Shown piece by piece: positions 5,281-60,862 of a DNA stretch of 64,000 nucleotides (position 1 is the stretch's first letter; every line of letters begins with the position of its first letter). The translations under genes were made by a program, and so were the position numbers. Under the pieces are notes generated by a model that saw only the letters and a list, made by a program, of their open reading frames with translations, was not told the DNA's origin and searched no databases. Source of the stretch: an archaeon (GTDB lineage: Archaea; Iainarchaeota; Iainarchaeia; Iainarchaeales; CSSED10-239); assembly GCA_035390665.1 (NCBI GenBank), contig DAOOUC010000003.1, positions 10,742-74,741 on the forward strand, written 5' to 3'.

Positions 5281-5757
5281 TTATAAATCTTTTCTTGCGT
5301 GTTTTGTATTAAGTAAATAACCTTTAATTAATTTAATTCTTTCTAAATATTTATCTTTATTATATAATTTATATGCAAAATCATAACAAGTAAGTAAATT
5401 TTCTAAAGTACTAATATTTACATTTGTATTTCCTAGTATTGTATCTCCATAGTCTTTATTTTTTAAAAGAACATAAGATTGCTTATCAAAAGAGTTATCT
5501 ACCCCAATAAATTCAATTTCTATATTATTTAGATTTAAATCTAAATAATTTTTTCCTTTTTTAGATACATTTATTTTAGGGTCATATATTTTTTTTAACT
5601 TTTTAAAATCTTTATAATTTACAATAAAATCAAGATCTTTTGTTTCATTTATTATTTTTTTAAAATAAAGGACCGTTCCTCCAGTTATAAAATAATCAAT
5701 TTTGTGTCTATTTAATTCTTTGACAATTTCTATTACTGTTGGTTTTATTGATTTCAT
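5281..5757 (-). CDS. Minimal nucleotidyltransferase (Pol-beta-like NTase fold)
   Basis: ITGGTVLY...x9...TKDLDFIV matches the hG[GS]...D.D pattern of the NTase superfamily. Confidence 0.5.
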   Translation of the reverse strand: MKSIKPTVIEIVKELNRHKIDYFITGGTVLYFKKIINETKDLDFIVNYKDFKKLKKIYDPKINVSKKGKNYLDLNLNNIEIEFIGVDNSFDKQSYVLLKNKDYGDTILGNTNVNISTLENLLTCYDFAYKLYNKDKYLERIKLIKGYLLNTKHARKDL

Positions 5758-8677: not shown

Positions 8678-9895
8678 TTATATTTTATCTATTGGATAGT
8701 CTTTCAGCATTTCTATTATCTTTAGCTTTATACTTTGCTTTAATTCTTGGTTATCTGGTTCAGAGATTACTTGATTAATATAATCTGCAATTACTCTAAT
8801 TTGTTCTTCTTTAAACCCTCTTGTTGTTATTGCAGGAGTTCCAATCCTTATACCTGAAGTTATAAATGGTTTTTGAGGGTCTTTTGGTATTCCATTTTTG
8901 TTAACAGAAATATTTATTTCTTCTAAGATTTCTTGTGCTTTTTTGCCTGTAATGTTTTTGTTTCTTAAGTCTACAAGTATAAGATGGTTATCAGTTCCAT
9001 CAGTTACAAGTTTAAAACCATAATTTTGAAGTTCTTGTGCTAAAGTTTTAGAGTTTTTTAGAACTTGTTCTTGATAAGTTTTAAACTCTGGTTTTAAGGC
9101 TTCTTCAAAACAAATTGCTTTTCCTGCAATTATGTGTTCTAATGGCCCTCCTTGAAAACCAGGAAAATTATTTTTGTTTATTTTTTCTCCAATTTCGTCA
9201 TTATCTGTTAAGATTAGTCCACCTCTTGGGCCTCTTAAAGTTTTATGAGTGGTTGAAGTAACAATATCTGCATAAGGTAAAGGCGATTGGTGAAGGTTGG
9301 TTGCGACCAAACCAGCAATATGTGCCATGTCTGCCATTAGATATGCATCAACAGAATCTGCAATTTCTCTAAATCTTTTAAAATCAATCTTACGAGGATA
9401 AGCAGAAGCACCACAAACAATCATTTTTGGTTTTATTTCTTTTGAAAGCTTTTGGATTTCATCATAATCAAGATAACCATTTTCATCTGTTCCATAACTA
9501 TAACTTTCAAGAAGTCTACCTGAAAAATTAAGTTTAAAACCATGTGTCAAGTGTCCTCCACTATCAAGAGACATGCCAAGTATTTTATCTCCTTTTTCAA
9601 GTAAAGAAAAATAAGCTATTAAGTTTGCAGAAGAACCAGAGTGTGGTTGAACATTTACATATTTACATTTGAAAAGTTCTTTTGCTTTTTCTCGTGCATA
9701 ATCTTCAATCTCATCAACAACCTCACACCCAGAGTAATATCTTTTTCCAGGATATCCTTCAGCATATTTGTTTGTAAGAACAGAACCACAAGCTTCTCTA
9801 ATCTCTTTAGAACAAATATTTTCAGAAGCAATCATTTCTACAGTTTCTTGTTGTCTAATCTTTTCTTTCTCTATTAGTTCTTTTATTTTTGACAT
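8678..9895 (-). CDS. glyA: Serine hydroxymethyltransferase
   Basis: PLP-lysine region [16 protein letters not shown]. Overall SHMT length and motifs. Confidence 0.92.
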
Positions 9896-9903
9896 AATAA
9901 ATC

Positions 9904-10863
9904 CTATTTAATTATTTCATCTAATATTTTTGACATCTTTGTTTTGATTTTTTCTTTTGAATCATAGATATTAAATCTATAGATTTCTGGAAGATATTTT
10001 GAAGTATGCATTTTACATCCTTCTGTGTAAAGTTTATCAAGCCATTTACCTGCATATCTTTTATTAACAAGTAATTGATAGTCTGAATTTAATTCGTGAT
10101 CATCAAGTATTCTTCCTTCACTTCTTTTGTTCTTTAATTCTAAATATTTTTCTTTCTTCCAAGATTTTGGACCACACACAACAAAGATATGTGTTGGTGG
10201 AAACCTAAAAGCAACTTTGTGACCTGGAAGAGAAAGATATTTTTTTAGTTTTATACCTTTCTGGTTATTTTCTTTATCATAAACTTGATAACAAGCAGAT
10301 TCTTCGCTTCTGCTTCTAATAATTATTCTTTTATTATCTCTTAATATCTTTCTTATTCTATAAAATTCATCAATTCTATATGCTTGATGTACAAGAGCTG
10401 CAGAATATCCATCAATTGTTTCTTCAAAATCATAAGAACTTCTGTTCTGTTCAATCACTCTATTTACTTGGCCAGCGCCTCTTTTTGTTGGTTCTTCCAA
10501 AACCCAAACATCTGCAGAATCTGGATTAATATAAGTAGTTATTTTATTTTTCTTAAAAGAGCCAACTAAAAGGTCTGAATTTTTATTATATCCGGAAAGT
10601 AAAGAATAAATTTCTAATAATAATTTATCTTTTTTTTCTTGTGAAAAAGAATCTGAATTCAAAAAATCTCTTAAAGACATAAAATCTTTATTGTATTCTT
10701 TAAAAATCTCAGCATGAAACAAAAGATCCATTTCTGTTCCTCTAATGTCTCTAATTGTTTTTCCTTTTTCCTTAAAATAATTTATAAAATCATTAATCTG
10801 TGTGCTTGTTCCAGACATATCTGGTCCACAAATTACTATATCAAAGAATTCGGTTGTTGTCAT
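9904..10863 (-). CDS. Thymidylate-kinase-like P-loop protein with lysine-less Walker A
   Basis: [14 protein letters not shown] aligns to the Tmk GxDGSGKST motif with K replaced by [13 protein letters not shown] resembles the Tmk DRY..SSLAYQ region. Extra ~120 aa at the C-terminus. Confidence 0.45.
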
Positions 10864-10938
10864 TTTTATCCCAAATATAATAACTAGTAAAGTGTTTATA
10901 AATTGTTTCTACAAATATTTATGTATATATAAAAAATT

Positions 10939-11760
10939 ATGATTTATATGAATATTTTACTTATTTGTTCAAAAAACGATCTTGCATCTGTTAATTTTTT
11001 TGAAACTCTAACCACAGAAAGCTTTGAATTTACTACATTTTCAAAAAATCTTTGGTTTTTAAACAAAGAAAATAAAATTTATCTAACATTAACAGAAAAA
11101 ATGCATCTCTATCTTGAAGAAAAAGACATTTTAGATATTGAAAAAGAAGCCGATGTAAAATTTGAACAAATAATTTTTCTTTCAAAACATTCAACTCTTT
11201 CAGAAATAAAGCCAAGAACAATCTCTGTTCATTCAATTGGAAATTGGGGAAAAGCAGAGCTTGGTGGAATTGATGAGACTGTTGTAAAAACAGATCCAAT
11301 ATTAATTCGTTATTTGCTTTTGGATTTCTATAATAATAAACCAAAAACTTTGCCATTTGAAATAAAACAAGAAGCAACACATCATGGACCTTTCCTTTCT
11401 AAATCAACAATATTTGTGGAAATTGGCTCAAATGAAAATGCATGGAAAGATAAGGAGGCTTCTATTTTTGTTTGTAAGGAATTAATAAAAATTATTTCGG
11501 ATTATAATAAAATAAAAATTAAACAAGAAACTGATTGGAAAGAAGCAGTTGGCTTTGGTGGCTCTCATTATTGTACAAAATTTAATAGATTAACTTTTGA
11601 CCGAAACAATAAGTTTTGCTTTGGACATGTTATCCCTGATTATGCCATTACACAAATTACAGATAAACAAAAACTTAATCAAATATTAGAACAAGCAAAA
11701 GAAGAAAGTAATTCTTCTATGGTTTTAGATGAAAATTTAAAAGACATTATTTCTTTTTAA
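10939..11760 (+). CDS. dtdA: D-aminoacyl-tRNA deacylase, archaeal type (DtdA). Likely true start at Met 10948
   Basis: NILLICSKNDLASVNF, HSIGNWGKAELGG, EATHHGP, FVEIGSNENAW, GFGGSHYCTK, FGHVIPDYA. All recalled DtdA (tRNA_deacylase family) signatures. Confidence 0.65.
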   Translation: MIYMNILLICSKNDLASVNFFETLTTESFEFTTFSKNLWFLNKENKIYLTLTEKMHLYLEEKDILDIEKEADVKFEQIIFLSKHSTLSEIKPRTISVHSIGNWGKAELGGIDETVVKTDPILIRYLLLDFYNNKPKTLPFEIKQEATHHGPFLSKSTIFVEIGSNENAWKDKEASIFVCKELIKIISDYNKIKIKQETDWKEAVGFGGSHYCTKFNRLTFDRNNKFCFGHVIPDYAITQITDKQKLNQILEQAKEESNSSMVLDENLKDIISF

Positions 11761-12871
11761 TTTCTTTCTTAATTCTCTCTCTAATTTTCTCATCTAAAGC
11801 AAATATTGTTTGAATGTTTGGATTTTTAGAATAGAATGTTTTATCCTCTAATATTTTTGAAAATATTTTAACAAATGAGTCTTTAGGTAAATTATTTTTA
11901 TAAAGCTCTTCAGCACAAACATCATAAACCATTTGGAAAAGAATTGGATAACTGCCACCTTTTTTTATTGATAAATAAGCTAATTTAAGAGTTGCTATTT
12001 CTTCAAAATTTATCTTTTTAATATTTATATTGATATTATCTTCTAATTTGTTATTTTCTTTTATTTGAGAATTGTCAAGATAATATAAATTATATATTGA
12101 TTCTTTATTATTATCTGTATAATTAAAAACAGTACATCCGTTCTTTAGTTGTAATATCAAGTTTATTTTTTCTGTATTTGACTTATAGAAATCAAAATTA
12201 TCTAATTCTAAATTATATAAGTTAGACATTACAATTAAATGTCTAGACAACCACATTTTATTTTTAAAATAAAATATTTTTTTAAATTCAGATAATGTTT
12301 TAGAGGGATTTGTATAATTTGTTAAATTTTCTTTATCTTCCTTTGTATCATAATCTATAAGTATTATTTTATCAATTTCATTTAATTTTTTAGTATTTGA
12401 AAATAATGACATAGATTGAAATTGAGGGGTAATATAATTTAATTCAATTCCTTTGTTTTTTGCTTCATTAATGATTATCTTTCCAGAATATAAAATTGGT
12501 TCAAGATTAAGTAATCCAATGTCTTTATATTCTCCGATAGATGCTAATATTAATTTCACAGAATCAATTCCAGTAAAATCAGAAATTATCAAATCACAGT
12601 CTGTAATTTTTAGGAAAGAAGTATATTGAGAATAATCGTGATAACATTTAATATTAAATTCTAATTCTAATTTTTCTGCCAAATCTTTATTAGGAAAGAA
12701 AATAACAGATGGTTGTAATTCTTGAATTTGCTTTTTAAATAAATCAAATTGTTTTTCATCATTACAAAGTAGTGCTGAAATCTTATATTTTTGATTATGT
12801 CTTTTAAAAAAATCAATAATCTCTTGAGATTTTTTTCTTTGACTTCCTAAAATTAGCATTTTTTTTATCAT
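11747..12871 (-). CDS. Hypothetical protein with distant DXR (IspC)-like layout but degenerate motifs
   Basis: N-term ILGSQRKKS (vs DXR LGSTGSIG). Segment DLIISDFTGIDSVKLILASIGEYKDIGLLNLEPILYSGKII...ITPQFQSM parallels DXR ...IVGAAGL.PTLAAI.AGK.IALANKESLV...LPVDSEHSA, but the catalytic residues are not conserved. Confidence 0.35.
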   Translation of the reverse strand: MIKKMLILGSQRKKSQEIIDFFKRHNQKYKISALLCNDEKQFDLFKKQIQELQPSVIFFPNKDLAEKLELEFNIKCYHDYSQYTSFLKITDCDLIISDFTGIDSVKLILASIGEYKDIGLLNLEPILYSGKIIINEAKNKGIELNYITPQFQSMSLFSNTKKLNEIDKIILIDYDTKEDKENLTNYTNPSKTLSEFKKIFYFKNKMWLSRHLIVMSNLYNLELDNFDFYKSNTEKINLILQLKNGCTVFNYTDNNKESIYNLYYLDNSQIKENNKLEDNININIKKINFEEIATLKLAYLSIKKGGSYPILFQMVYDVCAEELYKNNLPKDSFVKIFSKILEDKTFYSKNPNIQTIFALDEKIRERIKKEIKKK

Positions 12872-12950: not shown

Positions 12951-12995
12951 TTATTTTTTTGCTGGTTTTTTTGCTGCCTTTTTCTTTGCTGCCAT
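12951..12995 (-). CDS. Micro-ORF (14 codons, MAAKKKAAKKPAKK) preceded by a strong GGGGGAAGGA Shine-Dalgarno-like motif. Speculative
   Basis: ATG at 12995. A G-rich purine tract at 13001-13010 on the coding strand. TATA-like CTTTATATAT about 60 nt upstream. Confidence 0.15.
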   Translation of the reverse strand: MAAKKKAAKKPAKK

Positions 12996-13241: not shown

Positions 13242-14651
13242 TTAATCAAGAGGAATAACGCATCTAAACCCAATCGAATCTGATTTATAACTTGGCGCCC
13301 ATCTTAAATTCATTGCAAAAACACCTGATGCATTTTCATCAAAATGTGTTCCACCCCTTACTATTGCGTGAACATTTGAATTATATGCAAGTCCTGAATT
13401 TGCTTGTCCTGGAGCAATATAAATTTTTCCAACACCTTGTTCTGAATCATAATCATTAAATGGTTTTATTTGACTATATGTTAAAGAACCCGATCTTGCC
13501 AAATTTGTAAATTCATACCAATCTCTTTCAAATAAATCTTCAAATCCTGGAGATCCATGCTGTACACCGCCACTATCATTTCCTTTATTATTTAAATCAG
13601 GATAATCCTCGCAGGTTCCATCACAACTTTCTATAATTGTTAAATCTACCCATTCTGCTAAATTTCCAGAGAAATCCCATATTTCTTCGCCATTAGATAA
13701 AACTAACTTAGCAAGTTCATTTCTATTATCTCCATAATCAATTAAACCCTTTAAATAGGATGCAGAACTATCTATTCCTACATTTCCTTTTTTTAATGAC
13801 CCTATTCCTGTTATTCCGCTATCCCAATTAGTTGAAACTTGTTCAATATTTCTTGCAATTGTCATCCATTCATCATTTGTTATTAAATGTGCACCAGAAT
13901 TCTCACAAATTTTTTTTACTGCACATAAATTTAAAATGGTTTCTGGAGGATCAGAAATTTTGTTTTCTAAAACCGCCATTGAACCATTAATTTCATTTCC
14001 TTCTTCACACATTCCATCAGAAATATATCCATCATTTATTCTAGCTTCATATTTTTGAACACAAAATTCAGAAGTATTATAATTTGGATTCCCTGGAACT
14101 GTAATATATCCATCTGGACAGCTTGTTGTTACTATTTCAGGATTATAACTTTCACAATATCTAAAATCAAAATCTTGTGAATTAACTTTTAATTCTATAT
14201 ATTTATTCTCAATGGTATATAAATTTAAAATAAAAGAACTTGATGGAAAACAAGCAATTGGAATTATAGTCAAATCTCCGCTATTTATTTCAATTTGTGG
14301 ATTTAATGCAATTCTTTTTGTAAGATATTTAGCATCCTGCAATTGATTATCAACTATAGTATATCCTTTAATAACTAAATCTTTTGTACTTGTATTTTGA
14401 ATTAAAACAGATCTATTTATTGCTTTTTTTACAAATATAAATCCTGTTATATCATCTTTTTCTGCTATTATATCTTTAGATGAAGACAATGTTGTATTTG
14501 TAAAATTTGTTCCCCAATTTATTATTATAGTAACTATAACTACACAAATTACTACAAGTAAAATAATTGCAATAATAGGAGATATTGCTTTTTCTTTTGT
14601 TCTCATATCTTTCTTTCTTTTTTTATTTAATTTATTTTTTTTTAAATTCAT
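13242..14651 (-). CDS. Pilin-like (class III signal peptide) surface protein with C-terminal formylglycine-generating-enzyme/SUMF1-like domain
   Basis: N-term basic stretch then KAISPIIAIILLVVICVVIV (archaeal prepilin-type signal). C-term HLITNDEWMTIARN, GNLAEWVDL, VRGGTHFDEN, SIGFRCVIPLD (FGE-sulfatase domain hallmarks). Confidence 0.6.
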   Translation of the reverse strand: MNLKKNKLNKKRKKDMRTKEKAISPIIAIILLVVICVVIVTIIINWGTNFTNTTLSSSKDIIAEKDDITGFIFVKKAINRSVLIQNTSTKDLVIKGYTIVDNQLQDAKYLTKRIALNPQIEINSGDLTIIPIACFPSSSFILNLYTIENKYIELKVNSQDFDFRYCESYNPEIVTTSCPDGYITVPGNPNYNTSEFCVQKYEARINDGYISDGMCEEGNEINGSMAVLENKISDPPETILNLCAVKKICENSGAHLITNDEWMTIARNIEQVSTNWDSGITGIGSLKKGNVGIDSSASYLKGLIDYGDNRNELAKLVLSNGEEIWDFSGNLAEWVDLTIIESCDGTCEDYPDLNNKGNDSGGVQHGSPGFEDLFERDWYEFTNLARSGSLTYSQIKPFNDYDSEQGVGKIYIAPGQANSGLAYNSNVHAIVRGGTHFDENASGVFAMNLRWAPSYKSDSIGFRCVIPLD

Positions 14652-14932: not shown

Positions 14933-15265
14933 TCACCGGGGACTAATTTCTTCTATTTCATCTTCTAAAATATTTAATGATTCAAAAATATAATTGTCTT
15001 CTGTTATTTCATCAAAATAAATTGTATCATCAATTTGTAATTCATTTATTGTAATGCTATCATTTACTATTTTTGCTTTTTCAAACCTATCTGAAGAATT
15101 GTTTACAGAATTATCTGTTTTTTGATTATTTAAAACAATAGTTCTGAAATCAATATTTTTGGATAAAAATAAAAGCATAACGAGAAATAAAAAAATCACA
15201 GCAGTAATTTGCTCTTTTTTATTCTGATATTTTCTATATCTTTGTCTATTTATTTTTATATTCAT
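14933..15265 (-). CDS. Small membrane protein (single TM), hypothetical
   Basis: 110 aa, basic N-terminus then AVIFLFLVMLLFL. Confidence 0.3.
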   Translation of the reverse strand: MNIKINRQRYRKYQNKKEQITAVIFLFLVMLLFLSKNIDFRTIVLNNQKTDNSVNNSSDRFEKAKIVNDSITINELQIDDTIYFDEITEDNYIFESLNILEDEIEEISPR

Positions 15266-36424: not shown

Positions 36425-37144
36425 ATGTTAAATAATTTATTAAATGGATTTAAAGTTTTTGTAAATAAAAAAACCCCACTTATTGTTTTATTATTTGCTT
36501 TTTCTTTCTTTGGACTCAATTATCTATCTAATGTTTTATTTGAAGAATTAGCAATAGGTATTAGTCTTAAAGAATATCCTTCTTTTCTTGTAAATTACTA
36601 TAGATTTGATTTATTTTGGTTTATCTTAGCAATGATTGGTTTATTCTTTTTATCTAATTTAGGAATATATTTAATTGCAAACAGTATTACAAAATCAAAT
36701 AAAAAAATAAAGACAGATGTCTTTAATTGTTTAACATATACTATTTTAACAGCTATCTTCTTTTTATTTATTGGATTAATAGGATATTTTTCTGTTTTGC
36801 CAAGTGGCTATTTTTCTATAATAATGTTAATTATTTTAGGAATAATCGCTCTTGTTGTTTCTTTTATAACTTTCTTTGGTATTTTGTTTCTTCCAGTATC
36901 AAATACTATCAAAGATAGTTTAAGAAATTCCTGGGGATTTATTAAAAAAAGATTTTGGGCAATTGTTTTAATGATAATTATTCTTGGAATAATAAATGTA
37001 GCAATTAGTTATGCATTTGAAATTATTTATACAAGAATAAAAGATTCAGAAATAATTAGTTTAATACTATTTATATTTACAAATACTATAATAACAATGT
37101 ATACTACAAGTGTTTTTTCTTCATTTATTAAGAAGAAAAAATAA
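36425..37144 (+). CDS. Polytopic membrane protein, hypothetical
   Basis: About 6 hydrophobic helices. Confidence 0.35.
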   Translation: MLNNLLNGFKVFVNKKTPLIVLLFAFSFFGLNYLSNVLFEELAIGISLKEYPSFLVNYYRFDLFWFILAMIGLFFLSNLGIYLIANSITKSNKKIKTDVFNCLTYTILTAIFFLFIGLIGYFSVLPSGYFSIIMLIILGIIALVVSFITFFGILFLPVSNTIKDSLRNSWGFIKKRFWAIVLMIIILGIINVAISYAFEIIYTRIKDSEIISLILFIFTNTIITMYTTSVFSSFIKKKK

Positions 37145-37299: not shown

Positions 37300-40330
<3,031 letters not shown>

Positions 40331-40687: not shown

Positions 40688-42484
40688 TTAATTAGGAGAA
40701 TATAATAATCCTTCAACTTTTGTTGGTGTTTCAATTACTGGATCTCCTGAATCAACACCTAATTTTCCTTTGTCATTGCTTCCCCAACAATAAAGTTCTT
40801 TTATTTTTCCACTCCCTGGATCAACAATTGAACAAGTAAAATTATATCCTAAAGAAGTGTTTGTTTGATTAATCATATTTTTCATTGATTCTGGGACATT
40901 ATGTGAAAGTTCATCTTTTGATTCTAGTCCTAATTGCCCAAGGTTATTACTTCCCCAGCAACTTTGTGTAAATCCTTCTTTCCCATAAATTGCACAACTG
41001 TGAGTTTTTCCAACATCTAACATTTGAATATTTGTTAAACCAACAACAGGGACAAATACTGGAATATTTAAATCTCCTGCTCCAGAACCAAGTTTCCCGA
41101 ATTCATTATTTCCTGCACAAAATGCAGAGTTATTTTCTTGAATAAATAAACAAGAATGGTTATCTCCAACAGATACTCTCATGGATATTGGAGCATTTAT
41201 TTGTACTGGACTTAGTTGTGAAATAGTATCTTCAGTTCCTAATTGCCCAAAAGTATTATCTCCCCAACACATAACCTTCCCATCGGTTAATACTGCACAA
41301 GCATGAGTAATTCCTATATCAACACTTATAACATCTGATAAAACAAAAGTTGGAGAATCTTTATGATCTTTATCTCCAACTCCTAATTGTCCATAAGAAT
41401 TATCACCCCAACAATATAATTTATTTGCAGAATCAATAGCACAAGAAGAGTTTCCTCCAACAGCTATACTAGTCACTTCTCCAAATTCAGGAATAACTAC
41501 TGGTATTAAACTCAAACTTTCTGGAGTTTCAAAACCAAGTTGTCCATAAGAATTATCACCCCAACACATTACATCTTTTGTGTCTAATAATGCACAAGAA
41601 TGAGAAAATCCAATACTTACTTGTATTGCAGTATTAATCTCTAAAACTAAAACTGGTTTATTACTTAAGTCATTAGTTCCGTTTCCAAGTTGGCCTTTTT
41701 CATTATTTCCCCAACAATTAATTTTACCCCCCTCTAACAAAACACAAGCATGATTTTCTCCTAAGGATAACTGTAATGGTTCATCTATTAAATAATTGTA
41801 AGTAATAATATCACTATCTATATAATTTTCTTTTATTGCAATTAATTTTAAGGTAGTATCTTCTTGAATTAATATTGCACTACCATTATATTGATTACTT
41901 GTTTCAGAATCGGGGTTTGTCCCATCTGTTGTATAATAAATCATATCATTTTCATTATCTGGAGTCAAAGTAATTTCTGTATTTAATGGAAGATATCCTG
42001 AATCTAAAGAGGCGCTAGGATTTCCGACTTTTGGCTTTGTTTGTGGAGCTTTTGTAATAGTAGGTAAAGAAAAATAATTAGTTGAATTGTTTAAAACTAT
42101 AGAAACCTTTGTTCCGGTCAATACTGTATCTATTGGAATAATAACCGATGCTCCTGTTATTATCTCAATTTCAGAATCCAAAGTTATTTCTTCTGTATTT
42201 CCTTCATTGTCTGAAATTGTGTATCCTGTTATTGTTACATTATTTGGCCCTAAATTTTTAATATTTAAATTACCTGTTTTTTCTATTGTTGCAGCTACAA
42301 AAGAATTTACTACAATTTGATTTTCTATATATTTCTTAGTATCTAAAATTCCATCTGTTTTGTCTAAACTTTTATTTGTAAATTGATTTCCCCAACTTAA
42401 AATTGCAACAGTAATTATTGTTGCAACAACAACTAATAATATTACTGTTATAAGCGTTGACACAGCTTTAAATTTATTTTTCAT
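40688..42484 (-). CDS. Pilin-like (class III signal peptide) surface protein with RCC1-repeat beta-propeller
   Basis: N-term KAVSTLITVILLVVVATIIT. At least six repeats of the type CWG(D/N)N..GQLG (RCC1 signature), e.g. CWGDNSYGQLG, CWGNNEKGQLG, CWGSNNLGQLG. Confidence 0.65.
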   Translation of the reverse strand: MKNKFKAVSTLITVILLVVVATIITVAILSWGNQFTNKSLDKTDGILDTKKYIENQIVVNSFVAATIEKTGNLNIKNLGPNNVTITGYTISDNEGNTEEITLDSEIEIITGASVIIPIDTVLTGTKVSIVLNNSTNYFSLPTITKAPQTKPKVGNPSASLDSGYLPLNTEITLTPDNENDMIYYTTDGTNPDSETSNQYNGSAILIQEDTTLKLIAIKENYIDSDIITYNYLIDEPLQLSLGENHACVLLEGGKINCWGNNEKGQLGNGTNDLSNKPVLVLEINTAIQVSIGFSHSCALLDTKDVMCWGDNSYGQLGFETPESLSLIPVVIPEFGEVTSIAVGGNSSCAIDSANKLYCWGDNSYGQLGVGDKDHKDSPTFVLSDVISVDIGITHACAVLTDGKVMCWGDNTFGQLGTEDTISQLSPVQINAPISMRVSVGDNHSCLFIQENNSAFCAGNNEFGKLGSGAGDLNIPVFVPVVGLTNIQMLDVGKTHSCAIYGKEGFTQSCWGSNNLGQLGLESKDELSHNVPESMKNMINQTNTSLGYNFTCSIVDPGSGKIKELYCWGSNDKGKLGVDSGDPVIETPTKVEGLLYSPN

Positions 42485-53235: not shown

Positions 53236-54966
53236 ATGTATTTAAAACTTAAAGAAAATAGTATAGACAAAGATTTATTTTATAACTGTTATAAAAATTT
53301 TGATAAAAAAGAGTTAGTTGTATTTAATTGTAAAAACTGTAATGATGCCCCTTGTATTTTAGCTTGCCCGCAAAAAGCTATATCTAAACAAAAAAATGGA
53401 ATTGTTTTTATTGATTCAAAAAAATGTATTGGCTGTAAAAGTTGTGTGTTTGCTTGTCCAGAAAATGCAATTATTTTTAAGAATAATAAAGCTACAAAAT
53501 GTGATTTATGTTTAAATAATTCATTTATCATGCCATGTTATTATGCTAATAGAGATGTATTAGAATTCTGTGAAAATTTAGATTCTGAAACACACACAAT
53601 AATCTTAGAAAAATATTTAGGATATATAATTACAAAGGAAAAAATAATCCAAACCCTATCGTTAGATGGAAAGGTTATAAAAACAGATAATAAAACAATG
53701 TATTTACTTAAATATCAACAGTTATCCAATGATGAAATAAAAGTTATTAATGAAATACTTGATTCTTATAAATTCAAAACCGAAGAATATAATCAAAATA
53801 TTAAATTAAATCTAGAAACAGAACTAATAGAATATTGTTATAAAAACAATATAGAATTAGATAAAGACCAATTCTCTTATTTAATTGATCTTGCCATAAA
53901 TAATTTATTTGAATTCGGGCCATTAACACATTTACTTAATGATTTTAATCTGGAAGAAATTGCAATAATTGGGATAAATCTCCCTGTATTTGTATATCAT
54001 AGAATTTATGGCTGGCTAGAAACTAATTTAAAATATATTTCTGAACAAAAATTAAAGGATATAATAAATAAATTAGGTTGGAATACAAACAAATATATTA
54101 CATTGAAGAATCCAATAATGGATGCAACTTTAAAAGATCACACTCGACTTAATGCTATAATTTCTCCAATAACAGAAAGTGTTTGTTTAACCATTAGAAA
54201 ATTTTCAGAAAGACCAATATCTATTTTTGATTTATTAAAATATAAAACTATCTCATCTAAAGCTCTTGCTTTTCTTAAATTAGCATTTTTAACTGACGCT
54301 AATATTTTTGTTGTTGGTAATACTGGTTCTGGTAAAACTACTACTTTAAATGCATTATTGGATTTTATACCAAAAGAGGAGCGCCTTATTCTTGTTGAAG
54401 AAGTTCAGGAAATTAATGTTACACATCCACACAAGGTGTCAATTTTAGTAAATAAAGAATTGGGAATTACTATGGAAAATCTAATAATAAATACACTTAG
54501 AATGAGACCAGATAAGGTCGTGATTGGAGAAGTAAGATCTAGAGAAGAATCAAATGCATTAATTGATTCTTTACTTTGTGGTCAAGCTAAAGGGACATAT
54601 ACAACTTTTCATGCACAATCTGCAAAAGATGCAACCTTGAGGTTTCTTTCTTATGGGATTTTAGAAAATGATATTACTGCAATAGATCTAATCATAACTC
54701 AAAGAAGATATAACGAATATATTAATGACAGCAATTTTAAGGATAAAAGAAAAATATTTGAAATCTCTGAAATATTTTATGAGAATAATAAACTAAAAAT
54801 CAATAAAATATTTGAATATTGCCCAGATAAAAAAGAATTATTATTTAAAAACTACCCAAATAAACTAATGCAAAAATTTCAACTTGCTTTTGGGATAAAA
54901 ACCAAAAAACAATTATTGGAATTAATAGATATAGAAGAAAAGAGAATTCTATCTAAAAAAATTTGA
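53236..54966 (+). CDS. Type II/IV secretion-family ATPase (TadA/CpaF/VirB11-like) with N-terminal di-cluster [4Fe-4S] ferredoxin domain
   Basis: N-term CKNCNDAPCILACP and CIGCKSCVFACP. Walker A VVGNTGSGKTTTLNALL. Asp/His boxes RMRPDKVVIGEVRSREE...GQAKGTYTTFHAQSAKDA. Confidence 0.75.
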   Translation: MYLKLKENSIDKDLFYNCYKNFDKKELVVFNCKNCNDAPCILACPQKAISKQKNGIVFIDSKKCIGCKSCVFACPENAIIFKNNKATKCDLCLNNSFIMPCYYANRDVLEFCENLDSETHTIILEKYLGYIITKEKIIQTLSLDGKVIKTDNKTMYLLKYQQLSNDEIKVINEILDSYKFKTEEYNQNIKLNLETELIEYCYKNNIELDKDQFSYLIDLAINNLFEFGPLTHLLNDFNLEEIAIIGINLPVFVYHRIYGWLETNLKYISEQKLKDIINKLGWNTNKYITLKNPIMDATLKDHTRLNAIISPITESVCLTIRKFSERPISIFDLLKYKTISSKALAFLKLAFLTDANIFVVGNTGSGKTTTLNALLDFIPKEERLILVEEVQEINVTHPHKVSILVNKELGITMENLIINTLRMRPDKVVIGEVRSREESNALIDSLLCGQAKGTYTTFHAQSAKDATLRFLSYGILENDITAIDLIITQRRYNEYINDSNFKDKRKIFEISEIFYENNKLKINKIFEYCPDKKELLFKNYPNKLMQKFQLAFGIKTKKQLLELIDIEEKRILSKKI

Positions 54967-54972
54967 ATAATT

Positions 54973-55686
54973 ATGTTGTCTAATAACATTAAAATGCTTT
55001 TGATTTTAGGGTTAGTAATAACTATATTATTTTTATTATTAAATTTCATATATCCTTTAGATTTAATATTCTTAATTTATATTGAATTCATTTTTGTTGT
55101 TATTTATTATTCGGTTTGGTTTTTTATAAAACGGATAAAAGAACAAGATGAGAAAACAAGATTGTTAAGAGAACTTCCTTTTTTTCTTAATAGTCTTGCT
55201 AGTGATCTAGATAAAAATATACCTTTAAAATTATCTTTAGAAAATCAAGCTAAAAGAAATACTTTGATTGGAACAAAAGTCAGTTTAGCACTGTTTCTTG
55301 TTTCAAATAAAGGATATACTTTACAATCAGCATTAGAAAATATATCTAAAAATAATATTGAATTAGAGCGAGTAATTTATCAAATAATAGACATTTTACA
55401 TAGTGGGACTAAAAATAAATCAGAAGTTTTTAGAATATTAGCTAATAATTTTCTAGAGCAACAAAGCACGGCCACGAAAAATTATTCCACCAAATTAAGT
55501 TTCTTATCTTTAGTCTTTGTTGTTGTGTCCGCAATTGTCCCCGCTTTATTTTTAATGTTTTTCTTAGTTGGCAGTAATTTTTTTGAGATTGAAATTTCGG
55601 TGGTTGGCATTATTTTAATAACAATAATTTTATTTCCAATCATTGATATGTTCATATTATTATTTATGAGAGCAAATCTTGTTTAG
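54973..55686 (+). CDS. TadB/TadC-like (T2SS-F domain) pilus platform membrane protein, first of a split pair
   Basis: N-terminal TMs, cytoplasmic helical domain RELPFFLNSLASDLDKNIPLKLSLE..., two C-terminal TMs. Confidence 0.55.
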   Translation: MLSNNIKMLLILGLVITILFLLLNFIYPLDLIFLIYIEFIFVVIYYSVWFFIKRIKEQDEKTRLLRELPFFLNSLASDLDKNIPLKLSLENQAKRNTLIGTKVSLALFLVSNKGYTLQSALENISKNNIELERVIYQIIDILHSGTKNKSEVFRILANNFLEQQSTATKNYSTKLSFLSLVFVVVSAIVPALFLMFFLVGSNFFEIEISVVGIILITIILFPIIDMFILLFMRANLV

Positions 55687-55698
55687 GGGCAATAAACA

Positions 55699-56517
55699 AT
55701 GAAAAAATATTTAATTATTATTTTTAATATTTTATCTATCTTTGTTTTTATTATCTATAAAATTAATATTTTCCTTTCTTTAATTTTTTTAATTGTTGGT
55801 AATATTATAATTATTTTATTAAATAAATTATATTGTAAATATATTATAGATCTTGAGCGAAAAAAAATAGAATATGCACTTTTAGATGAAATTTTAGTAT
55901 TATCAAGTCAACCAAGAATTAATGACCTTAATCAATTACTTACAAAATTGTCTCATTCCAATAACAAACTAATATCTAAAGAATTTAGAATAATTCTTCA
56001 TAAAATTGAAGAAGGACATAGTGTTAAAGATGTACTTTTTGTATTTTCAAAAAAATATAACTCTGAAATATTAGATCGCTTTCTTGATTTATTATATGGA
56101 TCTATTACCACTGGTACTACATCTGTTGTTGATTATCGTTCTTTTGCCAATAATTTTTTAAAGTCTAAGCAATTAATTGACGAAAGAAATTCAGTTCTTT
56201 TAATTCAAAAATATACTATTATTTTTGCAGGGTGTTTTATTGTACCAGGAATATTAGGAATTGTAATTTCTTTAGTTAACAAATTAATTGGAAACTTAGA
56301 TTTTTCATTAATTGATGCCTCAACCAAATTAGCAAGTAATACAATGTTATTTTCTACTTGTTATTATTGTTCTATTATTTATATTATAGAATATGTATTC
56401 ATTTCTTCAATTTATTTAAGCATGTTAGAATCAGATATTAAAAAAACTATAATTTATATTATTTTCTTAATGCCAATTTCTATAATTATATTTTTTTTAA
56501 GTTCTATTCTTATTTAA
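55699..56517 (+). CDS. TadC-like (T2SS-F domain) pilus platform membrane protein, second of the pair
   Basis: Same architecture: ALLDEILVLSSQPR...FRIILHKIEEGHSVKDVL... then TMs. Confidence 0.55.
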   Translation: MKKYLIIIFNILSIFVFIIYKINIFLSLIFLIVGNIIIILLNKLYCKYIIDLERKKIEYALLDEILVLSSQPRINDLNQLLTKLSHSNNKLISKEFRIILHKIEEGHSVKDVLFVFSKKYNSEILDRFLDLLYGSITTGTTSVVDYRSFANNFLKSKQLIDERNSVLLIQKYTIIFAGCFIVPGILGIVISLVNKLIGNLDFSLIDASTKLASNTMLFSTCYYCSIIYIIEYVFISSIYLSMLESDIKKTIIYIIFLMPISIIIFFLSSILI

Positions 56518-59212: not shown

Positions 59213-60862
59213 TCATTCAGGCAAAGGATCTTGAGTATTATTTCTTAGATAAGGATATGTTATTCCTTCTTCTATTCCCCAGATATCTGTAAAATTCCAA
59301 TCAGTAAACGTATCTTGTGTTTTCATTTCTGTGGTTGTTTTTGGAACTCCTCTCCCATCATTATCTGATTGCCCAGAAGTATTTGTATCATATATAATAT
59401 AATATATTCGAGAAATATCTCCGCCGCCCAATAAGCCCCCATAATTTTCATTACCGATAACTGATCCTGCAGAATAAGAACTAAAAATAATTCCTTCAGG
59501 TAATCGTATAGGAGGAGGTGTTAACTCCCCATTATACCCCACAAGTCCACCTACATAATTATTACCACTAACATTACAAAAGGAATAAGAATCAGTTATT
59601 CCCCCCCTATTATATCCAACTAACCCACCAATATCATTTCCTTCAGAACTAACAATTTCACCAATAGAATAACTATTGATAATATCCCCCCTCTTATATC
59701 CAACTATCCCACCAACATCGCTCTCTGAACTAATTATTTTAATATTAGAATAACTATTTTCTATATTTCCATAACCTAATCCAACTAATCCACCACAATC
59801 ACTTCCACAATAAATATTCCCATTAAAACTACTGGAATTTATATCTCCACCATCTGAATTAAATCCCGCTCTATTATTTATTCCTATTAATCCTCCAATA
59901 GCAGAATTACCTGATATAGTTCCAGAAGAATGTACATTAGAAAGTATTGAAAACCACATAAAGTTTCCAACAATACTACCTACATTATTTGACCCTATAA
60001 TATTTACATCAGTCAAAATTAAATTTTTTATTTCAATCATTTTACTTTCTGTATATTTAATATATCCAAATAAACCAATATTATCGTTCTCTGGTAAATT
60101 AATATATAAATTACTTATTGTGTAATTATTTCCATTAAAACTTCCTTCAAAACCACTATCATCAGAACCTATTGGTTCAAAGCCCTCTCCTTCATTGTAT
60201 GGACTAACACCAAGATCTAGGTTTTTTCCAAGTTTATAGTGCTTGCCAAGCCCATTTCTAACATTATTAAGATCATCAACACTACAGATTACAAATGGAT
60301 CTTCTTCAATTTTTCCACTTCCATTATCTGTTATTCCTAAACAAACAGGATCTGGTATTTCTGTATTATTAAAACAAGAATTGGATTGATAATTACTATT
60401 GTTAATTGGAACAGTAATATATTTCCCATCACTAGTTATTAAATTTACTTTAAAAGATTCATCTGGATTACAAATAATTGGAACAGAAACCATTGATCCA
60501 GAATTTAAATTGACGGGGTCATCTAAAGTTATTGGCTTATTTAATATTTCGCTATCTTGTGGTGCAACAATTTCATATTTTGTAATTATTACATCTTTAT
60601 CGGATAGATTTTTTACAATATAGCTTTCTGGTTGAGGATTACTAGTATATATATACCCTGTTAATGTTGGATCTTCTTTATAAATTTCTTGAGATTTATC
60701 TAATGAATTACTAGTGGTTATTAATCCCCAAGAAAGAATAGAACCTACAATTATAACTGCAATTACAAGTAAAAGAATTACAGAAATGATTGGAGAAAAC
60801 GATTTCTTATTTAAATCTCTCAAATCTTTTATTCGTTTAGATTTAAATTTATGTTTTCTCAA
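59213..60862 (-). CDS. Pilin-like (class III signal peptide) surface protein with GLUG-motif beta-helix repeats
   Basis: N-term KKSFSPIISVILLLVIAVIIV. Repeats AIGGLIGINNR, CGGLVGLGYGNI, DVGGIVGYKRGDI, DIGGLVGYNRGGI, NYVGGLVGYNGEL, ENYGGLLGGGD. Confidence 0.6.
   Translation of the reverse strand: MRKHKFKSKRIKDLRDLNKKSFSPIISVILLLVIAVIIVGSILSWGLITTSNSLDKSQEIYKEDPTLTGYIYTSNPQPESYIVKNLSDKDVIITKYEIVAPQDSEILNKPITLDDPVNLNSGSMVSVPIICNPDESFKVNLITSDGKYITVPINNSNYQSNSCFNNTEIPDPVCLGITDNGSGKIEEDPFVICSVDDLNNVRNGLGKHYKLGKNLDLGVSPYNEGEGFEPIGSDDSGFEGSFNGNNYTISNLYINLPENDNIGLFGYIKYTESKMIEIKNLILTDVNIIGSNNVGSIVGNFMWFSILSNVHSSGTISGNSAIGGLIGINNRAGFNSDGGDINSSSFNGNIYCGSDCGGLVGLGYGNIENSYSNIKIISSESDVGGIVGYKRGDIINSYSIGEIVSSEGNDIGGLVGYNRGGITDSYSFCNVSGNNYVGGLVGYNGELTPPPIRLPEGIIFSSYSAGSVIGNENYGGLLGGGDISRIYYIIYDTNTSGQSDNDGRGVPKTTTEMKTQDTFTDWNFTDIWGIEEGITYPYLRNNTQDPLPE

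Follow-up and report, generated by a model that had tools for sequence, protein, structure and literature searches.

A candidate modular type IV pilin with a C-type-lectin-fold head in an Iainarchaeota genome, and its retroelement-diversified relatives

The gene and its two modules

The window analysed here is a 64-kb stretch of archaeal DNA with a GC content of ~27% (contig DAOOUC010000003.1, from an Iainarchaeota assembly), in which a 23S rRNA, elongation factor 2 (EF-2), and split RNA polymerase subunits are archaeal hallmarks. Its subject is a gene on the minus strand whose product joins a pilin module to a head built on the C-type-lectin fold (CLec) of formylglycine-generating enzymes (FGEs), and which is referred to below as the pilin-CLec gene. 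We consider it reasonably probable that this gene encodes a modular archaeal type IV pilin serving as an adhesin of fixed specificity, with a lectin-like, non-catalytic head. Heads of this family are recurrent targets of diversity-generating retroelements (DGRs), in which a variable region (VR) is paired with a template repeat (TR) and a reverse transcriptase (RT). The gene and its parts are as follows.

13242..14651, minus strand: pilin-CLec gene, a complete open reading frame (ORF) of 469 amino acids, read as an archaeal type IV pilin of modular build whose head has the C-type-lectin/FGE fold
14586..14651, minus strand: basic leader peptide, residues 1-22, ending in K21-A22 (consensus of 41 homologues; starts of deposited pilin chains)
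14478..14585, minus strand: hydrophobic alpha-1 helix of the mature pilin, residues 23-58, with conserved W46-G47 and F50-T51 (AlphaFold2 model, Pilin_N hidden Markov model, consensus)
14142..14477, minus strand: beta-sandwich globular part of the pilin module, residues 59-170 (AlphaFold2 strands, Foldseek, BLASTP against paralogues)
13245..14126, minus strand: C-terminal domain with the FGE-type C-type-lectin fold, residues 176-469 (294 amino acids), read as non-catalytic (profiles, Foldseek, absence of Cys)
13260..13358, minus strand: segment equivalent to a DGR VR, residues 432-464 (RGGTHFDENASGVFAMNLRWAPSYKSDSIGFRC), predicted ligand-contact surface (register alignment with TR/VR pairs)

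An earlier, sequence-only reading of this DNA had placed the ORF exactly. The ORF is on the minus strand and has 469 residues, and the motifs quoted in that reading are all present in the protein: KAISPIIAIILLVVICVVIV at residues 21-40, TNDEW at 258-262, GNLAEWV at 329-335, RGG at 432-434, and GFRCV at 461-465. The stop codon occupies positions 13242-13244. The true start may be M16 (nt 14606), the position at which the orthologue P0002 begins. In public data, the identical protein is named ‘hypothetical protein [archaeon]’ on a 123-kb contig, and a public protein search recovers orthologues of 56-68% identity, one of which, P0004, NCBI calls an archaellin/type IV pilin N-terminal domain protein. 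The gene order S12-S7-EF2-(pilin-CLec gene)-DXR-DTD-x-SHMT recurs in another archaeal metagenome-assembled genome (MAG; locus L001), where EF-2 is 92% identical to that of the window and the pilin-CLec protein only 56%. Because of this synteny and this difference in identity, the sequence at 13242-14651 can be taken as a real, chromosomal, and fast-evolving gene.

The N-terminus carries a class III signal of the archaeal type. At the junction of leader and helix, the protein reads K21-A22, then I23-S-P-I-I-A-I-I-L-L-V-V. A common pattern emerges from the 41 archaeal homologues found among the best 120 matches: lysine (37/41) is followed by A, S, or G (41/41) and then by [I/L]-S-P, with proline at +3 in 38 of the 41. 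The consensus continues as LIATILLVVVAV..., followed by W (38/41)-G-K-x-F-T, and its hydrophobic helix exceeds 20 residues. Positions 1-25 of the Pilin_N model align to residues 21-45. When a profile of the N-terminal module (A3) was searched against 177,635 PDB sequences, it matched archaeal type IV pilins and filaments only, namely the Pyrobaculum pilus 8fk7 (4e-8) and 8rey (1e-4), and more weakly 9myg, Iho670 (3j1r, 5kyh), and Natrinema PilA2 (8gi2). Cleavage by a prepilin peptidase is predicted at A22|I23 because residue 1 of chains 8rey, 3j1r, and 5kyh aligns directly after the small residue A22, provided that the deposited chains start at the mature N-terminus.

The resemblance to pilins extends well beyond the signal. 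The full-length AlphaFold2 model, with a predicted local distance difference test (pLDDT) score of 81, has a helix at residues 25-58 followed by beta-sandwich strands between residues 72 and 157, and in Foldseek this part of the model matches 8fk7 (2e-6) and the Sulfolobus AAP pilin 8q30 (3e-4). The class III signal suggested by the sequence-only reading is therefore upheld by the pattern in the 41 homologues and by the chain starts, but its description as a signal peptide alone has to give way to that of a whole pilin module of ~150 amino acids. Direct scans of the single protein against Pfam, NCBIfam, and PDB returned sub-threshold matches only, and profiles built from homologues were required.

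The same reading had assigned the C-terminal part to the FGE fold, and had named the family PF03781 as a check. On the single protein, the check falls just short (22.3 bits vs a cutoff of 23.3; E 1.2e-4), with a match that spans residues 422-465 only. At the level of the family, PF03781 is matched at E<=1e-3 by 53 of the 66 homologues that were aligned. The assignment is further supported by profile and structure matches. A profile of the C-terminal domain finds TaqVP (2e-8), pFGE (3e-5), PorK (6e-5), and FGE (1e-3), and another homologue-built profile matches TaqVP (5vf4) at 7.8e-10. In Foldseek, TaqVP (2e-8) heads the matches of the full-length model, with Mtd at 4e-5 and FGEs at ~1e-4. A model of the domain alone is poorer than the full-length model (pLDDT 72.6 vs 81), and all of its matches at E<1 fall within the FGE/CLec superfamily. 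By profile and by predicted fold, the closest solved relative of the head is TaqVP, a DGR variable protein.

Whether such a head could be an enzyme depends on the catalytic, copper-binding Cys pair of FGE, which we take to lie between RGG and GFRC (C336 and C341 in the human enzyme). The window protein has no Cys in this interval; nor do 105 of 112 family members, while the other seven have one. The conclusion that the pair is absent rests on this zero count together with the textbook placement of C336/C341; a phmmer search of the last 75 residues against PDB sequences, intended to supply a residue-level alignment to a true FGE, gave no match. An alternative pair in ESCDGTC (residues 336-342) was considered and rejected: the motif sits remote from the active-site position in an insert of low model confidence, is spaced variably in bacterial homologues, and is missing from most archaeal ones. 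It is more likely a structural disulfide. The head would thus bind rather than catalyse, because the FGE catalytic cysteines are absent, and the earlier suggestion of a binding module gains support from the lack of conservation of the pair it had proposed to examine.

Public annotation tells a different story. The family members P0016, P0022, P0043, P0108, P0005, P0007, and P0053 are named ‘SUMF1/EgtB/PvdO family nonheme iron enzyme’ or ‘formylglycine-generating enzyme required for sulfatase activity’. Since the Cys pair is lacking, these names are probably wrong, and homologues named as FGEs despite absent catalytic residues amount to a systematic misannotation that should be flagged.

Retroelement targeting in the family and the fixed copy in the window

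The relatives of the gene were surveyed in the best 80 of 566 related loci in species-representative genomes, which are distributed over the candidate phyla radiation (CPR)/Patescibacteria, DPANN archaea, and Bdellovibrionota. Across the family, the 26-residue spacer between RGG and GFRC combines fixed scaffold residues (W, G, AG, F/L, L, L, PS) with variable positions in which N, S, Y, T, D, and G abound. In sequence terms, this pattern is typical of DGR variable regions. In about 20 of the 80 loci, the last ~120 nt of the domain are repeated 0.5-3.5 kb away with 82-96% identity, and the mismatches fall almost exclusively on TR adenines (16/16 in L003, 18/18 in L030, 18/18 in L048, 20/21 in L073, and 17/18 in L018). 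An ORF of ~340-400 amino acids with YxDD and GxxxSQ motifs adjoins the TR/VR pair in nearly all DGR-positive loci. The full arrangement can be followed in Ca. Forterrea multitransposorum (L057; CP045477, target at 9524-10897 of the locus), whose complete genome has target gene, bAvd, TR, and RT in that order, with Pfam matches to bAvd (PF22296, 2e-21) and RVT_1 (1.5e-21). The sequence encoded by the TRs is RGGNWxNGTNAGLLNxNLNNNPSNTNNNIG(F/V)RC, with AAC codons.

Several of these targets share the architecture of the window protein. The archaeal DGR-positive targets L011, L030, L048, and L057 are 446-457 amino acids long and combine a class III pilin N-terminus with a middle domain like that of the window protein. 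In the bacterial DGR-positive targets L020 and L073, the N-termini are those of classic type IV pilins (GFTLxELL). Tallied over the 80 loci, DGRs accompany four of eight archaeal-pilin loci, two of 12 bacterial-pilin loci, 11 of 47 others, and two of 13 that are 5'-truncated, so that pilin N-termini are found in 6/19 of the tallied DGR-positive loci. The bacterial N-methylation-type signal PF07963 occurs in 24 of the 66 aligned homologues, all of them bacterial; the window protein is of the archaeal type.

The same head is carried on archaeal pilin N-termini in DPANN and on bacterial type IV pilin N-termini in CPR, and the two modules have different affinities. Outside its own clade, the head is closest to bacterial proteins, with 42.5% identity to a bacterial pilin fusion (P0006) and 38-41% to proteins of Patescibacteria, and is slightly further from most other archaeal pilin-CLec proteins (35-40%). 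The carrier module matches archaeal proteins only (30/31, plus one with a long leader).

The CLec head is also common in predatory Bdellovibrionota/Bacteriovoracaceae (L014, L021, L024-L026, L037, L046, L049, L054, L063, L080, and others). Family members from Bdellovibrionota recovered by protein search carry the head behind lipoprotein-type signals, several of them with fn3 domains, and at one locus of this group (L054) a TR whose mismatches are A-biased accompanies an RT-like ORF. Attachment to other cells is a trait of CPR, DPANN, and Bdellovibrionota alike, and the CLec head module is, by sequence similarity, common to these three unrelated groups.

Other architectures were encountered among the loci. 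In a Ca. Iainarchaeum MAG (L031), two 100% identical pilin-CLec 3' ends (5576-5746 and 11927-12097) lie ~6.3 kb apart, and a 264-aa ORF bearing RT-like motifs comes after each copy; an A-biased TR was not seen at this locus. The whole cassette would seem to have been duplicated in tandem recently. A MAG labelled Methanosarcinales (L071, 3622-6066) encodes a 1172-aa protein with an archaeal pilin N-terminus and three tandem CLec heads, whose 3' segments are 80-83% identical without adenine bias. A protein of ~1,530 amino acids, with an N-terminal transmembrane segment and an internal CLec domain, recurs in L012, L016, L018, L028, L036, L039, and L042; its VR lies at about nt 10,700-10,900, its ORF runs to ~14,300, and the TR and RT are upstream of the target. 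The MAG labels attached to it (Pseudomonadales, Anaerolineae, Woesebacteria, Patescibacteria) suggest inconsistent binning or taxonomic labels.

Residues 432-464 of the window protein align, in the same register, with the TR/VR pairs of homologues that are DGR targets, and the VR scaffold is present. The gene itself was nevertheless rejected as a DGR target, as it has no TR, no RT, and neither a GC-rich VR nor NNC codons. No second copy of the 3' end of the gene exists in the 64-kb window, where internal similarity is limited to the 5' pilin-coding part common to two paralogues, and no ORF of at least 150 amino acids there has the RT motif YxDD. TR and RT are likewise absent from ~5.5 kb of left flank and 9.6 kb of right flank available from near-identical contigs, in which YxDD occurs only in GlmS; with these flanks, the search spanned ~79 kb. 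The VR-like segment has 38% GC, as against active archaeal VRs that form islands of 61-66% GC in loci of 25-30% GC. Codons at its variable positions end in A, T, or G (ACA, GAT, GCA, AGA, TGG...), where AAC templates would be expected to give NNC. The scaffold has drifted, with W replaced by H, G by E, and A by S. Across four orthologues, identity in the segment is 66-72%, on a par with the rest of the protein, and divergence is concentrated in loops 211-240 and 271-300.

Paralogous pilins, filament machinery, and neighbouring genes

The window contains two further modular pilins and a set of candidate assembly genes.

40688..42484, minus strand: paralogous modular pilin, 598 amino acids, with the carrier, a CHB_HEX_C/Fn3_assoc domain, and an RCC1 beta-propeller head
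59213..60862, minus strand: paralogous modular pilin, 549 amino acids, with the carrier and a GLUG-motif head (TIGR02537 19.7 bits vs a cutoff of 20)
53236..54966, plus strand: ATPase of the FlaI/PilB type IV filament family, candidate assembly motor (T2SSE 8e-36; FlaI model 3e-59, below the equivalog cutoff)
54973-55686 and 55699-56517, plus strand: two adjacent half-size T2SSF-like membrane proteins (T2SSF 1.3e-3, below cutoff, and 1.4e-5, just above it)

Both paralogues start with the same class III motif as the window protein and share carrier homology with it over ~120-175 amino acids (in BLASTP, 38% identity over 177 residues with E 5e-33, and 37% over 123 residues with E 4e-16). Together with the window protein, they point to a pilin family with interchangeable heads in a single small genome. 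In the ATPase, an N-terminal 4Fe-4S dicluster ferredoxin domain (Fer4_11, 1e-9) is fused to the T2SSE core, and the gene pair at 54973-56517 could, by its sequence, encode a platform protein in two halves. Loci of the ‘system 1’ archaeal type IV filaments, DPANN included, likewise pair an ATPase with a split platform, and in the Aap pili of Sulfolobales an Fe-S protein is reported as a separate component (bioRxiv 10.64898/2026.04.22.720090). A seven-transmembrane-segment ORF at 36425-37144 was considered as a prepilin peptidase and set aside, having no family match and no evident aspartate motifs.

The immediate neighbours of the pilin-CLec gene are EF-2, a 110-aa ORF, and DXR-like and DTD genes. 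The upstream 110-aa ORF (14933-15265) was tried as a partner and rejected: it is without a family match and was not detected in L001 at E<=1e-5. Directly downstream, the DXR-like gene (11747-12871, minus strand) matches PF02670 at 5.7e-9, with its C-terminal domain below cutoff, and has a counterpart of 63% identity in L001, the syntenic archaeal locus. To our knowledge, 1-deoxy-D-xylulose-5-phosphate reductoisomerase, an enzyme of the methylerythritol phosphate pathway, is unexpected in archaea. The spacer between the two genes, 370 bp long and very AT-rich, holds a 14-codon ORF (MAAKKKAAKKPAKK; 12951-12995, minus strand) behind a G-rich, Shine-Dalgarno-like sequence (GGGGGGAAGG), which may encode a tiny basic peptide or be due to chance. 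Elsewhere in the window, a complete archaeal 23S rRNA gene lies at 37334-40314 (minus strand) and no 16S rRNA gene occurs anywhere in the 64 kb; the rRNA genes are therefore unlinked.

Proposed role, alternatives, and significance

Taken as an adhesin, the protein would act through a sequence of steps that follow the type IV pilus paradigm. The class III signal peptidase would remove the short basic leader between A22 and I23. The alpha-1 helix and beta-sandwich would then serve as the carrier, put into a type IV filament by the FlaI-like ATPase and the split platform, and the carrier would hold the 294-aa CLec/FGE-fold head outside the cell, where it would bind rather than catalyse. Ligand contact would be made through residues 432-464, the segment that DGRs rewrite in DPANN and CPR homologues. 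Because this segment is fixed in the present organism, the adhesin would be of constant specificity. It would be one of at least three pilins in the genome with a common carrier and differing heads, probably as a minor or tip subunit given its 300-aa head, and probably with a role in attachment to a host cell or surface glycan. The sequence-only reading had itself proposed an adhesin for host attachment. That idea is strengthened by the placement of the head in the branch of DGR variable proteins, by homologues of the same architecture that are DGR targets, by the two further carrier-sharing pilins, and by the type IV filament ATPase and platform genes in the window; pilus display and host binding would follow from these by analogy.

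A number of observations weigh against this adhesin reading. On the protein alone, Pilin_N (PF07790) scores 17.1 bits against a cutoff of 25.2, and TIGR02537 scores 11.1 bits against a cutoff of 20. Fold comparisons with the domain-only model give modest TM-scores of 0.36-0.47. The gene lies 40 kb from the filament machinery, between EF-2 and the DXR-like gene. No prepilin peptidase (Peptidase_A24) was found among the scanned ORFs of the window, nor was a small major-pilin gene identified in it. Lastly, a 300-aa head on each subunit may not fit a filament, in which case the protein would be a minor or tip subunit or would lie outside the filament.

Some of these points lend weight to the alternative that the protein is a membrane-anchored or bindosome-like surface receptor and not a subunit of an extended pilus. 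Its class III N-terminus would then do no more than tether the lectin-like domain to the cell surface or within a short pseudopilus, like that of the class III sugar-binding proteins of Sulfolobus. In archaea, class III signals are common on functional proteins other than classic pilins (bioRxiv 10.64898/2026.04.22.720090), the pilin-CLec gene is unlinked to the ATPase and platform genes, and no major pilin is seen in the window. We nonetheless think this alternative unlikely, as the protein possesses, beyond the signal, a complete pilin beta-sandwich with homology to filament subunits of solved structure, shares its carrier with two paralogues, and has neither a substrate-binding-protein fold nor an adjoining ABC transporter. 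An active DGR acting in trans, with RT, Avd, and TR elsewhere in the genome, would fit a genuine DGR-target family whose archaeal pilin-type loci are DGR-linked in four of eight cases, and only ~79 kb of the genome was inspected. Such an arrangement is very improbable here, given the lack of a TR copy or RT in the window or the extra flanks, the low GC and non-NNC codons of the segment, its scaffold drift, its conservation across four orthologues at the level of the whole protein, and the absence of a DGR from the syntenic orthologue locus L001 as well.

Two further possibilities concern the origin and chemistry of the head, and we give both very little credence. Membership of the FGE/SUMF1/EgtB/PvdO enzymes, with the protein secreted or at the surface, is suggested by the weak PF03781 match, by the true FGEs among the fold and profile matches, and by the public annotation of homologues under these names, but it is highly improbable. 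The catalytic Cys pair is lacking throughout the family, the DinB/iron-binding domain seen in EgtB is missing, and the top matches are the non-catalytic fold members TaqVP, pFGE, and PorK. Moreover, the would-be active-site segment is randomised by DGRs in homologues and is therefore incompatible with a conserved active site. It is scarcely credible, in turn, that the gene encodes a receptor-binding protein acquired by the genome from a virus or prophage. The fold is that of the phage protein Mtd and relatives occur on eleven viral contigs, but such viral occurrences are rare (11 loci, against 566 cellular loci), the housekeeping neighbourhood is conserved and syntenic with another archaeon, and the N-terminus is a cellular pilin module.

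The adhesin reading can also be set beside known systems. Modular type IV pilins have been described in S. sanguinis, where the head is of the vWA type in PilB and a lectin in PilC (Raynaud et al. 2021, PMC8179133). Like these, the window protein has a small pilin carrier, a short linker, and a bulky head that is not pilus-specific, with a proposed role in adhesion and a probable location at the tip or as a minor subunit. Unlike them, it is archaeal, with a Pilin_N-type class III signal and without the N-methyl/E5 motif. The survey in that study searched the bacterial N-methyl signature IPR012902 and leaves archaea unmentioned, and the FGE-type CLec head is not among the architectures in its main text.

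Domains of the FGE-type CLec fold are a classic DGR scaffold (PMC5006420). The window protein shares with the DGR variable proteins TaqVP (5vf4), TvpA (2y3c), and Mtd (1yu*) the scaffold RGGxWxxGxxAGxFxLxLxxxPSxxxxxxGFRC, with TaqVP as its best match. It differs from them in that its gene has no TR, RT, Avd, or mutagenesis signature, and in possessing a pilin module, which is lacking in the solved DGR variable proteins. The fold without a catalytic Cys pair is also found in pFGE/SUMF2 (1y4j) and in PorK/GldK of type IX secretion. However, pFGE is an ER-resident paralogue and PorK a lipoprotein ring component, and neither protein is fused to a pilin or has kinship with the targets of DGRs.

The class III binding proteins of archaea, among them those of the Sulfolobus bindosome, likewise join a prepilin-type N-terminus to a ligand-binding domain and depend on type IV filament machinery (bioRxiv 10.64898/2026.04.22.720090). 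Their domains are ABC-transporter substrate-binding domains for nutrient capture, whereas the window protein has a CLec head, a full pilin beta-sandwich, and no transporter nearby; the words ‘lectin’ and ‘formylglycine’ do not occur in the text of that study. A similar concept, in which a retroelement diversifies the adhesive part of a pilus, is presented for Bacteroides type V pilus adhesins (bioRxiv 10.1101/2024.11.15.621889). The Bacteroides case differs in its type V pilus, its chaperone-free strand exchange, and its organisms.

For the wider family, it is quite possible, though we advance this tentatively, that the DGR targets of DPANN and CPR are in part type IV pilus subunits, each a retroelement-programmable lectin head on a pilin, with which these ultra-small symbionts would find and hold host cells. 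The head would cross the boundary between bacteria and archaea while each domain keeps its own carrier, and the window gene would be a ‘frozen’ member. Full-text literature searches found no report of DGR-targeted type IV pilins in DPANN or CPR, with Paul et al. 2017 outside their coverage. The window protein, read as an archaeal modular pilin with a non-catalytic CLec head, belongs to a cross-domain family that DGRs frequently diversify.

For the window gene itself, the significance is the more modest one of a candidate adhesin of fixed specificity, one of three modular pilins in its genome. The family has broader implications. Members of DPANN and CPR are thought to live attached to other cells, and the molecules that make this contact are largely unknown. 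A pilin carrier that displays a lectin-fold head is a concrete candidate for such a contact molecule. Many DGR targets in DPANN and CPR have been described as lacking domains recognizable as membrane- or localisation-related (Roux et al. 2021, PMC8144416). The family bears on the question, left open in the largest DGR survey, of where the hypervariable proteins of CPR bacteria and archaea are located in the cell: at least some of them have pilin N-termini.

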